Shown in pieces: positions 29,932-32,210 of a stretch of 64,000 bases of DNA; positions within the stretch are counted from its first letter, which is position 1; each line of letters begins with the position of its first letter. This DNA comes from Parachlamydiales bacterium (lineage in GTDB: Bacteria > Chlamydiota > Chlamydiia > Chlamydiales > SM23-39). The notes under the pieces were generated by a model, which searched no databases, was not told where the DNA came from, and saw only the letters and a list, made by a program, of their open reading frames with translations. The stretch lies in NCBI GenBank assembly GCA_050302075.1, contig JBNLAH010000002.1:1-64000 (forward strand). The letters are read 5' to 3'. The position numbers and the translations under genes were made by a program.

Positions 29932-29960
29932 TGGACAAAAATTTTTTTTAACCCTACTTT
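29932..29960 (+). promoter_or_regulatory. Putative sigma66/70-type promoter of the MNIO operon
   Basis: TGGACA-N17-TACTTT; AAGGAG RBS at 29986-29991. Confidence 0.4.
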
Positions 29961-29997
29961 GCAGATTATGTATATGTATTGATGCAAGGAGATGTTA

Positions 29998-30498
29998 ATG
30001 AAGAAAAAAGATTTAATTAAATTAGCCCTGATCGGTCTGACATCGACGGCCTGCCTAGCTGCTCAAGACTCTGATGAGTTGGACCAAACACTTACAATGT
30101 ATCGGAGGAATTGCAAAGGCTATAGGTGCAGAGGACAGAAAGACTGTGGTAATCGTCGTAGACATAGAAGAGGTTGCAACGGAAATTATGGAGCTAAAAC
30201 AAAAGAATATAATAATTCACAAAAAAGTTCTTGTAGAAGCAAGAGCCAGTGCAATAGCGGCGATAAAAATACCTGTAGAGGACAAAATAGTTGTTCAGGA
30301 TCCAATGGGTGCAATGCGAATACGGAGGAAAATGCATCTTGCAAGGGAAACTCCAAATGTCGCTCAGGAAATACAAATGGCAAAGACAATAATTCATGTG
30401 CTGGACCGGGGGGATGTGGAAATAGCTCTATGAATAAAGGAAAAGATTTAAAAAGTGCTGATAAAAATGCAAAAAAACGTTATGAGTCATCTTTTTAA
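29998..30498 (+). CDS. Secreted Cys-rich repeat peptide, putative MNIO (DUF692) RiPP precursor
   Basis: Signal-like MKKKDLIKLALIGLTSTACLAA, 13 further Cys including six C-x5-C units, immediately upstream of DUF692. Start chosen from RBS spacing. Confidence 0.82.
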   Translation: MKKKDLIKLALIGLTSTACLAAQDSDELDQTLTMYRRNCKGYRCRGQKDCGNRRRHRRGCNGNYGAKTKEYNNSQKSSCRSKSQCNSGDKNTCRGQNSCSGSNGCNANTEENASCKGNSKCRSGNTNGKDNNSCAGPGGCGNSSMNKGKDLKSADKNAKKRYESSF

Positions 30499-30501
30499 AC
30501 A

Positions 30502-31347
30502 ATGAATAAAACGATGAAAAACATTCCAAACTTAGGAATAGGAGTAGGTCTTAGACCTGCTCACTATTCTGAAATATTTGCAAACTTACCAAAAATCGAT
30601 TGGTTTGAAATTATTAGTGAAAACTATATGAATGATTCTAAACCAGTTCAAGATAATTTAGAAAAAATATTAGCCCACTATCCAGTAGTGCAACATGGGG
30701 TTAGCCTTTCTATAGGTGGCCCAGATCCAATTGATTTTGAATATTTAAGAAAATTGAAAAAATTAGCTCAAAAAACAAAGACACCTTGGATCTCAGATCA
30801 TCTTTGTTGGGGAAGGGTTCCCGGCTCACATTACCATGATTTACTTCCGTTGCCTTATACCAAAAAGACAATGGAGTATGTTATTGAAAGAGCCAAAATT
30901 ATCCAGGATTTTCTAGAAGTGCCTTTTGCTTTGGAAAATGTATCGTCATATGCAAGCTTTAAAGAAGATGAAATGGAAGAATGGGACTTTTATGGAGAAG
31001 TTATTGAAGGTGCTGACATTTTTATGATGCTAGATGTAAACAATATTTACGTTTCATCTAAAAATCATAACTTTAATCCAAAAGACTATTATAAAAATCT
31101 TCCGCTTGAAAGAGCTATTCAAATCCATTTAGCTGGTCACTCAAATTTAGGTGACTATCTAATTGACACACATGACAATTATGTTTGCGATGAAGTTTGG
31201 GAGATTTACTCTGAGGTTTATCCATTAACTGGAGGAGTTTCAACACTTTTAGAGTGGGACGCTAATTTTATTTCCTTTGAAGATACTTGGAAAGAAGCTC
31301 TGAAAGCAAAAAAATTTCAAAAAGATCTAAATACATGCCAAAAATAG
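30502..31347 (+). CDS. DUF692 family multinuclear non-heme iron oxidative enzyme (MNIO)
   Basis: G.GLR..H, EIISEN, HGVSLSIG, SDHL, LENVS, LDVNN, IHLAGH, IDTH and LLEWD. Confidence 0.95.
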   Translation: MNKTMKNIPNLGIGVGLRPAHYSEIFANLPKIDWFEIISENYMNDSKPVQDNLEKILAHYPVVQHGVSLSIGGPDPIDFEYLRKLKKLAQKTKTPWISDHLCWGRVPGSHYHDLLPLPYTKKTMEYVIERAKIIQDFLEVPFALENVSSYASFKEDEMEEWDFYGEVIEGADIFMMLDVNNIYVSSKNHNFNPKDYYKNLPLERAIQIHLAGHSNLGDYLIDTHDNYVCDEVWEIYSEVYPLTGGVSTLLEWDANFISFEDTWKEALKAKKFQKDLNTCQK

Positions 31348-32177
31348 ATTCAAAAGTCCCGATTGGACTTTACACTCTTCAAAAATGGTTTGGTAAAGTA
31401 ATTACAACTCCAATTATCGACATAGATGAGAAGGGGATTCCAACAATTGATGATTCAAAACATAAAGAAGAAGCAAAAAGGCTAATTACTCCAAACAAGT
31501 TCTTAAGCTCAGATCAAAGAATAGGTATTTATAAAATGCAATATTGGCTTAGGTTATTTGAACTTTTAAAAGAGGATTTCCCATTTGTTTTAAGGTTGTT
31601 TGGGGATGATCTATTTGAGGTGAAAATAGCAACGCCATATTTAATCAAGTATCCACCAAATACATGGGACCTTAACTTTCTAGGTGAAATGCTGCCAAAG
31701 TGGATTGAAGATAACTACCAAGACGAAAGTGATAAAAAACTGATATACTATGCAGCAGTGATAGATACTGCATATTTTCAGTTGTTTTTCGCTCCAGAGT
31801 TTGATCAAATCTCAAACATTAGCAAAGAGACCAAAATTTATTTACAACCTTTTGTAAGAGTTTTTGAGTTAGATGCTGATTTATTTTCTTTTCGTGAAAA
31901 ATTTTTAGAGAAAGATCCAAATTACTGGCTTGAGAATGATTTTCCAAGGCTTTCAAAAAGCAAAAAGTTCTATACAGTCTTATATCGAGACTATAACAAG
32001 GTAAAATACTCTAAGCTATCAAAAGGAGAGTATTTACTTTTAAAAGCTTTTGAAAGGGGCTCTAGCATTGAAGATGCATTTCAAGACTTCCCTGCGAAAC
32101 TTATGAAAAATGCTGATATTGAACTTTGGTTTAAGATTTGGTCTGAAAACAATTGGCTGACAAATCAAAAGGCCTAA
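31335..32177 (+). CDS. DUF2063-type MNIO partner protein
   Basis: LQ.WF...I, RIGIY..QY..RL...L.EDFP.V..L.G...F...YL..YPP..W.L..LG..LP; overlaps the MNIO stop. Confidence 0.85.
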   Translation: MPKIDSKVPIGLYTLQKWFGKVITTPIIDIDEKGIPTIDDSKHKEEAKRLITPNKFLSSDQRIGIYKMQYWLRLFELLKEDFPFVLRLFGDDLFEVKIATPYLIKYPPNTWDLNFLGEMLPKWIEDNYQDESDKKLIYYAAVIDTAYFQLFFAPEFDQISNISKETKIYLQPFVRVFELDADLFSFREKFLEKDPNYWLENDFPRLSKSKKFYTVLYRDYNKVKYSKLSKGEYLLLKAFERGSSIEDAFQDFPAKLMKNADIELWFKIWSENNWLTNQKA

Positions 32178-32210
32178 GGCCATAAAAGACCTTAGGCGTA
32201 ATTTTTTATT
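32172..32210 (+). terminator. Intrinsic terminator closing the MNIO operon
   Basis: gcctaagg...ccttaggc stem followed by a T-rich run. Confidence 0.6.

Follow-up and report, generated by a model that had tools for sequence, protein, structure and literature searches.

A 64,000-nucleotide stretch of a Parachlamydiales genome (assembly GCA_050302075.1, contig JBNLAH010000002.1, positions 1 to 64,000; hereafter the window) carries a compact operon in which a gene for a small cysteine-rich peptide precedes genes for an MNIO (DUF692) enzyme and a DUF2063 protein. The question it raises is whether the peptide represents a distinct class of ribosomally synthesised and post-translationally modified peptide (RiPP), as a first-pass annotation of the sequence had proposed, or whether it belongs to a lineage that is already known. 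We favour the second answer, at a probability of about 0.65: the operon would be of the bufABC type (bufferin/captophorin, MNIO-PME1), with a precursor from the Buf2 (BUF_6/12Cys, 'Cys-Lys') lineage. That the peptide is the substrate, which of its Cys residues are modified, the chemistry, the export and a role in copper handling are matters that we infer from characterised homologous enzyme pairs; by extension, the product may contribute to defence against host copper. The three genes are borne out by the open reading frames (ORFs), the MNIO and DUF2063 genes also by Pfam, and the description of a compact operon in which these two accompany an exported precursor that is rich in Cys and does not belong to the EGKCG type is supported.

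The earlier account of the peptide holds in its details. Its 166 residues include 13 Cys beyond residue 23, where the signal (judged by inspection) ends; the six listed C-x5-C units, the RRRHRR patch and the Lys-rich tail are all present exactly, and EGKCG repeats are absent. The Cys residues lie at positions 19 (signal/lipobox), 39, 44, 50, 60, 79, 85, 93, 99, 105, 115, 121, 134 and 140, and the 143-residue core, with a net charge of about +16, is dominated by few residue types (N21, S19, G18, K16, R13, C13). This biased composition is a caveat on all profile and BLASTP scores for the precursor. Six C-x5-C units compare with an average of 0.70 when the core residues are shuffled, and one of 20,000 shuffles reached six; the sequence also contains one C-x4-C (C39–C44), six C-[KR] and seven C-x-G motifs, and only two [KR]C. 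Residues 44–89 resemble residues 93–127 (BLASTP E 0.003, 33% identity with gaps, in biased sequence), and the precursor seems to have arisen by tandem duplication of a Cys module that has since degenerated. An AlphaFold2 (AF2) model built on an alignment of five sequences (pLDDT 39.5, pTM 0.14) contains helices only at residues 3–20, the signal, and 26–37, which is consistent with a core that is disordered past residue 37. The precursor matches no Pfam family, and a Protein Atlas look-up returned no named family (best score 0.82, recognition 1816).

Relatives of the peptide are few, and what they share is distributed unevenly along the chain. Among about 15 billion proteins, four homologues were found, at 90, 79, 46 and 44% identity; when 1.84 billion representatives were searched exhaustively by profile, three clusters of the subfamily and two weak matches emerged, and the subfamily profile (A3) gave only four weak matches (21.8–28.5 bits) in a further 80 genomes from the window's family. 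Locus L004, in a genome of this family (G005), and locus L020, in a Chlamydiales record, have one and the same precursor as each other. Conserved across the subfamily are the signal, a helix with the sequence DELDQTLxMYRRNC and the KKADKNAKKRYESSF tail, with Cys19, 44, 79, 85, 105 and 140 kept among homologues down to 44% identity; the middle region and the number of Cys residues (9–13) vary. From this sampling the 13-Cys form appears to be confined to one chlamydial genus-level lineage. The basic tail may serve as a docking element; of 66 candidate precursors, 22 have a DKN motif in their final 45 residues. By the lipobox rule for lipoprotein signals, Cys19 may be a lipobox Cys; since it is invariant and the signals of relatives' precursors end in lipobox-like sequences (LSGC, ISGC, ITSC), lipoprotein processing is as plausible as cleavage by signal peptidase I. 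About 16% of Buf2 precursors carry lipoprotein signals (PMC12452194, section 14).

The evidence that carries the assignment comes from comparison with Buf2 precursors (BufA2; NCBIfam model NF050166, curated cut-off 60 bits). As a bona fide BufA2 set we took the matches to a chlamydial 6-Cys precursor (from locus L024), of which 17 of the 21 scanned pass the model at 65–153 bits. Their consensus, HCxGxNxCKGxxxCKTAxNDCKGxNxCKGQG...C...GG, has three C-x5-C and one C-x6-C, four or five C-[KR] and four C-x-G per 6-Cys domain; a 12-Cys example has six C-x5-C, two C-x6-C and eight C-[KR], and the motif counts of the window precursor resemble those of this 12-Cys form. Two of its units, CRGQNSC and CKGNSKC, match the consensus unit CKGQNxC. 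C-x5-C spacing with C-K/R-G is what PMC13097082 (sections 7 and 13) describes as the 'Cys-Lys' group and, being the Buf2 hallmark, does not constitute a new pattern in the precursor; the repeat that the first-pass annotation called unusual is the normal spacing of a BufA2 domain. The order C-x5-C-x5-C-x6-C-x5-C-x12-C of BufA2 is not kept, though spacing and unit type are present, and the domain end GQG[FWY]...C...GG, invariant in the BufA2 alignment, has no counterpart in the precursor. In Buf2 this end closes a small folded domain whose outermost Cys residues, the first and the last, can pair in a disulfide.

The link to Buf2 runs through a second chlamydial precursor, here called type A, whose 6-Cys core is flanked by a helical extension on one side and a DKNLAVK...KR tail on the other. 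Among the sampled Chlamydiota it is the precursor most often found next to the MNIO. By hhalign, the window subfamily matches type A at 94.7% (E 6e-8) over residues 91–164, covering both the Cys core and the basic tail, and type A matches canonical BufA2 at 98.2% (E 5.6e-14); the direct comparison of the subfamily with BufA2 gives 68.5% (E 4.6e-5) over residues 77–102. Scores against the BufA2 model are graded among chlamydial precursors (41.1, 33.6, 23.3, 13.8 and 10.2 bits), and none of the eight relatives' precursors scanned reaches the cut-off. Judged on these profiles, the precursor is homologous to Buf2-type cores, with common descent supported by the profile chain; by the same scores, it is formally outside the Buf2 family, a divergent, disordered, lineage-specific offshoot. 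The proposal of a distinct class was therefore too strong, given this chain, and equally the peptide does not fall squarely within a characterised bufferin family, scoring 13.8 bits against a cut-off of 60.

The enzymes point in the same direction. The MNIO matches Pfam PF05114 over profile positions 1–262 of 263 (336.5 bits), and its best-scoring NCBIfam model is BufB (NF050167, 308.9 bits), with HvfB at 240.9 bits against a cut-off of 360. Seven chlamydial relatives score 297–329 bits against BufB and five of the seven pass, so that the clade straddles the curated threshold; the enzyme belongs to the BufB/HvfB mega-cluster. Relatives in the Protein Data Bank (PDB) are 3bww (E 1e-40), TglH (E 1.2e-20) and MbnB (E 2.9e-10). 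The metal-binding motifs, which the first-pass annotation had described as intact, are invariant in all ten aligned chlamydial MNIOs (H65, D99/H100, E145, D178/N180, H209/H213, D222/H224, E251, D253), and their conservation is also visible in an alignment with 3bww and TglH; in line with work on MbnB, we take these residues to be iron ligands. The DUF2063 protein scores 40.9 bits against PF09836 (cut-off 27.2). No PDB chain matches it by sequence, and its AF2 model (pLDDT 88.8, pTM 0.83) was compared with known structures by Foldseek, which returned TglI (8hi7_A, E 2.3e-6, TM 0.59/0.61) and the NGO1945 / PME1 structure 3DEE (E 1e-5, TMt 0.68); these two matches indicate that both the DUF2063 domain and the half resembling a RiPP recognition element (RRE) are present.

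The gene order of the locus, A-B-C, and its tight spacing (Table 1) agree with the strict bufABC order described in section 13 of PMC12452194, and Cys-containing signal-peptide ORFs likewise stand directly upstream of the MNIO gene in relatives. Only one MNIO was found in the window's genome, which is 96.2% complete. A search of that genome for DUF2282 / Buf1 (PF10048) gave no match at E ≤ 1, nor does the domain occur in the precursor, and a six-frame search found no canonical BufA2, a weak negative since the Caulobacter vibrioides control also fell under the cut-off (the first-look filter seems to miss small BufA2 in that genome, which should encode it). The chlamydial type A profile (A6) also gave no match in the genome, in a search that had no positive control. 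With a sole MNIO and neither Buf1 nor BufA2 found, the adjacent peptide is the only candidate substrate seen.

Several observations weigh against the Buf2 assignment. The precursor scores 13.8 bits (E 0.051) against the BufA2 model, far under the cut-off, and 11 bits in the six-frame search; the direct profile match to BufA2, at only 68.5%, spans just 31 columns of biased composition; and the AF2 model of the precursor, at its pLDDT of 39.5 and from five sequences, is uninformative. The MNIO falls 1.1 bits below the curated BufB cut-off of 310, and no copper-related gene or regulator is found among the neighbours of the operon. Finally, the enzyme carries D253-A254, with Ala where Cys-Lys enzymes have Asp. 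The reading of the preceding Asp as catalytic base rests on FonB-Asp249 (PMC13097082, section 14); for the following residue that paper reports Phe where the enzyme is of the Lys-Cys group and Asp where it is of the Cys-Lys group, and models this Asp in contact with the substrate Lys. A comparison of the position across 51 distinct chlamydial MNIOs gave Asp in 42, Ala in 4, Glu in 3, and Thr and Ser in one each. The presence of Ala, not Phe, excludes the EGKCG type for the window enzyme, and in sequence terms Ala is a small departure from the Cys-Lys signature. That Ala might track the odd precursor was considered and rejected: another Ala enzyme, at L046, adjoins a canonical-looking 6-Cys precursor.

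Set beside characterised and predicted systems, the locus is closest to the Buf2 cluster of Caulobacter vibrioides (bufA2-bufB2-bufC2), likewise an A-B-C operon without DoxX or sigma genes. The two share a BufB-type MNIO, a DUF2063/RRE partner, a Sec-type signal, C-x5-C spacing with C-K/R-G units and profile-level similarity in the Cys core. The window peptide differs in lacking the folded-domain end, in its predicted disorder, with 13 Cys set in irregular N/S/G/K/R-rich linkers, in its basic chlamydia-type tail and in the Ala of its MNIO. No DoxX or sigma-factor gene adjoins the window operon, as had been noted, and two DoxX genes sit on other contigs; the absence had been taken as a distinguishing mark, which it is not, as the Caulobacter buf2 cluster also lacks bufD/DoxX in the account of PMC11626156, and no sigma/anti-sigma genes turned up in the Buf2 clusters described in PMC12452194. 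Section 14 of the latter describes 12-Cys Buf2 forms as duplicated 6-Cys domains. One such protein in our set (P0069, 153 bits in two stretches) resembles the window precursor in having about twice the standard number of Cys residues, six C-x5-C units and, on weak evidence in the window peptide, an internal duplication, but its two domains are intact, of the folded type and match the model, whereas the two modules of the window peptide are degenerate and match barely or not at all.

Type A precursors occupy the same genomic position as the window precursor, beside enzymes that are 64–74% identical, and have a related signal peptide and a DKNLAVK...KR tail with which the window tail aligns. They differ in that their 6-Cys core is clean, scoring 41 bits to BufA2, and is preceded by a long extension of helical character at the N-terminus, GYHLMTEDELLLELN..., which the window peptide lacks; the latter has extra Cys modules. 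In oxazolin and fontiphorin (HvfA/FonA; EGKCG, 'Lys-Cys'), an MNIO and PME1 likewise act on many Cys residues of a largely unstructured exported peptide, and multivalent copper binding is described for these products (PMC11252979, PMC13097082). The window precursor has no EGKCG, and in it Lys/Arg follows Cys rather than preceding it; its MNIO, besides the low HvfB score, has GLR-P instead of Arg-Arg and no Phe, and its operon lacks the DoxX of the HvfB-HvfC-DoxX system. Buf1 (DUF2282) shares the type of enzyme pair and the Sec signal, but has four Cys in a folded domain and clusters that often include DoxX and SigF/NrsF. A 'CxxxxC' family, with a conserved CxxxxC, DoxX, often Lactamase_B_2, and hosts given as all Pseudomonadati (PMC12452194, section 15), was compared by description; the window precursor has a single C-x4-C, and no DoxX or lactamase gene lies nearby.

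If the operon is of the bufABC type, the following course can be outlined. The precursor would be synthesised in the cytoplasm and held by the DUF2063 partner (BufC) through part of the core, possibly the helix near the N-terminus or else the basic tail; BufB, the iron enzyme, would then oxidise several Cys residues, likeliest those in C-[K/R/S/A]-G contexts, to 5-thiooxazoles, with a change of −4 Da each. The Sec system would export the product, which would be cleaved or lipidated at Cys19 and would stay in the periplasm or envelope, where thiooxazoles and remaining thiols could bind copper. In evolutionary terms, a Buf2 Cys module would have been duplicated and its folded domain lost, giving a low-complexity, disordered, highly basic 13-Cys peptide. 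Precedent for the chemistry comes from bufferins, where BufB and BufC suffice for the formation of 5-thiooxazoles, the signal peptide is dispensable, the central Cys residues of Buf2 carry the −4 Da change and the products bind Cu (PMC11626156), and from the statement in PMC13097082 that all characterised MNIO-PME1 clusters install 5-thiooxazoles.

The main competitor to Buf2 descent is the proposal that the peptide stands at the head of its own class of RiPP precursor, as a disordered metallophore with multivalent Cys repeats that came to resemble Buf2 by convergence, as any MNIO substrate would need closely spaced C-x-G sites; we consider this unlikely. The complete genomes of Protochlamydia, Waddlia and Neochlamydia, which supplementary file 2 of PMC12452194 lists with DUF692 = 1, DUF2063 = 1, DoxX = 1 and Buf1 = Buf2 = EGKCG = 0, speak for it: the published profiles find no precursor there, and two of these MNIOs are confined to the PME-type-1 list of that source, being absent from every list associated with a precursor. 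The peptide itself fails the BufA2 model, but the scores of chlamydial precursors fall away by degrees from 41.1 to 10.2 bits, and the two units that match the BufA2 consensus and the placement of the enzyme in the BufB clade likewise tell against independent origin. Predicted disorder, and a subfamily of just three clusters and two weak matches in 1.84 billion representatives, would suit a class of its own; against this, the chain to Buf2 through type A (94.7% and 98.2%) includes the tail, and not the Cys residues alone. A chance low-complexity ORF that merely lies upstream of an MNIO pair acting elsewhere, and is either no functional gene or no substrate, is highly improbable: the composition, overlapping ORFs in other frames, the highly variable middle of the peptide and the failure to find a promoter would all fit, yet the Shine-Dalgarno box is properly spaced, the signal, N-terminal helix, tail and six Cys residues are conserved to 44% identity, the upstream position is conserved in relatives, and the BufA2, Buf1 and type A searches found no other candidate substrate in the genome.

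Cys-rich envelope proteins of chlamydiae are expressed late, and the peptide could be mainly of this kind, a perhaps lipid-anchored protein that becomes part of, or adjusts, the disulfide-linked outer envelope of the infectious stage; the MNIO would then determine which Cys residues remain available, with copper buffering secondary or absent. The idea draws on Protochlamydia amoebophila, where pc1865 (DUF692) and pc1866 (DUF2063) are transcribed. The genes listed immediately ahead of these, pc1863 and pc1864, match no Pfam domain and belong to the temporal class 'late II'; in extracellular bodies they reach log2 RPKM (reads per kilobase per million mapped reads) values of about 9.6–11.5, and both are marked as present in the proteome of elementary bodies (PMC5451489, supplementary file 2); late II genes are described there as serving the transition from reticulate to elementary body (EB) and EB function. 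From gene order alone we infer that pc1863 and pc1864 are Cys-containing precursors, in keeping with the tandem signal-peptide ORFs at L024, L032 and L065. The outer-membrane location of pc1862–1864 (PMC2811131) is an in-silico prediction, and a periplasmic copper-binding peptide would equally appear in the EB proteome. The invariant Cys19 in its lipobox-like context suits an envelope role as well, but such a role leaves the retention of the MNIO-PME1 pair unexplained, and we regard it as improbable.

Elements of these readings can be joined, in a picture that we offer as speculative and on balance doubtful. Environmental chlamydiae would have turned the Buf2 module into fast-evolving, disordered, often lipid-anchored multi-Cys envelope peptides, which the infectious particle would bear after their synthesis late in the developmental cycle; tethered to the membrane, the 13-Cys form would act as a thiooxazole/thiol 'sponge' of high capacity that shields the extracellular or phagosomal stage from host copper or has a part in a redox-controlled envelope, and the basic tail (DKN...KKR), not the leader, would dock the DUF2063 partner. 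Should pc1863 and pc1864 prove to be precursors, chlamydial bufferin-like peptides would be abundant late products carried by the infectious stage. The window locus alone adds modestly, as one more, unusually Cys-rich, member of a chlamydial series. The RiPP class of the bufferins/captophorins was defined only recently and is very large; published surveys of it centre on Pseudomonadota, and their precursor profiles miss chlamydial substrates; together with its relatives, the locus indicates that the 'orphan' chlamydial MNIO/DUF2063 enzymes do have adjacent, Buf2-derived candidate substrates, whose forms within one phylum extend from a clean domain of six Cys to disordered peptides that have between 1 and 13. 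The series forms a natural set for asking what an MNIO-PME1 pair must recognise, and is relevant to the possible use of such peptides by obligate intracellular bacteria to withstand metal stress from the host.

The ribosome-binding site and the terminator of the first-pass annotation were both recovered, the latter as a hairpin of −13.9 kcal/mol (z −3.31; none of 200 shuffles equally stable) followed after 4–5 nt by a U-run; the consensus scan flagged this site for the minus strand only. The promoter was not recovered: the scan gave no sigma-70-like site for the + strand of 29800–32600, and the TGGACA...TACTTT pairing that had been put forward has a weak −10 element by eye. No terminator was found by the same scan between ligA and the precursor gene, so read-through from ligA is possible. 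An alternative start at ATG 29992 would give a precursor of 168 residues; the four homologues begin at MKKKDL.

Table 1. Features of the operon and its precursor peptide (coordinates in the window)
Feature	Position	Strand	Basis or remark
ligA	27912-29915		Upstream of operon; Pfam
Shine-Dalgarno-like AAGGAG	29986-29991	+	6 nt ahead of precursor ATG 29998; read from sequence
Precursor gene, bufA-like, 166 aa + stop	29998-30498	+	ORF list; four homologues; directly upstream of MNIO as in relatives
Signal peptide MKKKDLIKLALIGLTSTAC-LAAQ, residues 1-23 (putative)	29998-30066	+	KKK n-region and hydrophobic stretch, by inspection; invariant columns K2-K4, L6, G13, C19
Cys module 1, residues 44-85	30127-30252	+	C44-x5-C50-x9-C60-x18-C79-x5-C85; contains RRRHRR
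Cys module 2, residues 93-121	30274-30360	+	C93-x5-C99-x5-C105-x9-C115-x5-C121; part aligning to Buf2-type 6-Cys core
Final C-x5-C unit CAGPGGC, residues 134-140	30397-30417	+	C140 invariant in subfamily
Basic tail KDLKSADKNAKKRYESSF, residues 149-166	30442-30495	+	Invariant K152, A154, D155, N157, K159, K160, R161, Y162 in subfamily
MNIO (DUF692) gene, BufB-like, 281 aa	30502-31347	+	Begins 3 nt past precursor stop
DUF2063 partner gene (BufC / PME type 1), 280 aa	31335-32177	+	13-nt overlap with MNIO gene
Hairpin (32172-32197) and T-run	32172-32214	no strand assigned	Likely two-way terminator, common to convergent ORF 32206-32526

The flanking genes are of housekeeping type, encoding an HflX-like GTPase, MarC, two MiaB-like radical-SAM (S-adenosylmethionine) enzymes, GlgB, LigA, a major facilitator superfamily (MFS) transporter, a pyridoxal-phosphate (PLP) decarboxylase and rplM/rpsI. 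The convergent 106-residue ORF (32206–32526, − strand) belongs to no family, with a sub-threshold match to TBPIP_C (17.9 bits). Elsewhere in the window's genome there are five P-type ATPases, one with CPH and one with SPC before DKTGT, motifs that we take to mark heavy-metal pumps. Copper export is probably present. Short P-type ATPases at G000:C1:316496-320038 (L067) and G000:C1:108317-111874 (L069) carry the CPH and SPC motifs, and the N-terminus of the CPH pump is Cys/His-rich. No HMA domain (PF00403) was found in this genome, in a search that was positive in 13 of 14 control genomes.

The MNIO is widespread, if patchy, in the phylum. It was present in 16 of the 41 nearest genomes and in 139 of 400 sampled Chlamydiota genomes (119 of 334 of high quality; one genome was not scored), a count that includes a second, distant MNIO type at 32–39% identity; about 50 chlamydial MNIO loci were inspected. 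Occurrence is near-universal in some families (45/46, 17/23, 5/5), nil in the genomes searched of others (0/29, 0/35, 0/17) and 14 of 68 in the window's own. The distant type, seen for example in G268, G260, G348 and G280, is the sole match in some genomes and in others lies beside a BufB-type gene (G186, G188, G358, G372, G253). A complete genome of the same order (G040) has five MNIO copies, 49–55% identical to the window enzyme, one of them with an in-frame TGA. Named close relatives of the window MNIO come from metagenome-assembled genomes of Chlamydiota, Parachlamydiales or Rhabdochlamydiaceae, in agreement with the chlamydial origin first proposed; a few are from bins labelled Verrucomicrobia or Acidobacteria (L014, L028, L031 and L029, MNIOs 69–71% identical to the window's). 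These bins may be mislabelled or mixed, L028, L029 and L031 carrying chlamydial-type lipoprotein precursors.

Published treatment of these loci is sparse. The PVC (Planctomycetes-Verrucomicrobia-Chlamydiae) group is mentioned once among MNIO hosts in PMC11626156, and PMC12452194 refers to 'hundreds' of unclassified small ORFs with 1–18 Cys preceding MNIO genes. Our literature search found no publication on chlamydial bufferins, although Table S2 of PMC12452194 may already list chlamydial precursors.

Besides type A, chlamydial precursors include lipoprotein forms with CKGKNGCTGKSDC repeats, short 'AMSKCSKD' forms with 2–8 Cys, and long N/G/S-rich ORFs with AAGCxGGCGG, often as the second upstream gene. 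Two or three tandem signal-peptide ORFs precede the MNIO gene at L024, L032, L017, L047, L050, L052–L054, L056, L058, L062, L064 and L065; the proximal gene at such loci is of the 6-Cys type A, and the one or two distal genes are long and N/G/S/Y-rich, with an AAGCxGGCGG-like pair near the N-terminus. At L019 (an ORF of 300 residues) and L065:2754-3386, the type A flanks are kept (…Y.SL..EGKALAIQLAS… and DKNLA[VI]KEAQ+R) and the 6-Cys core is lost, leaving one or two Cys near the N-terminus. A locus from the window's own family (L042, G183:C28) encodes an 82-residue precursor whose 13 Cys lie very close together at uneven intervals, for example CDCKHNECRCKHGCGCSSCC, together with a second precursor of 115 residues.

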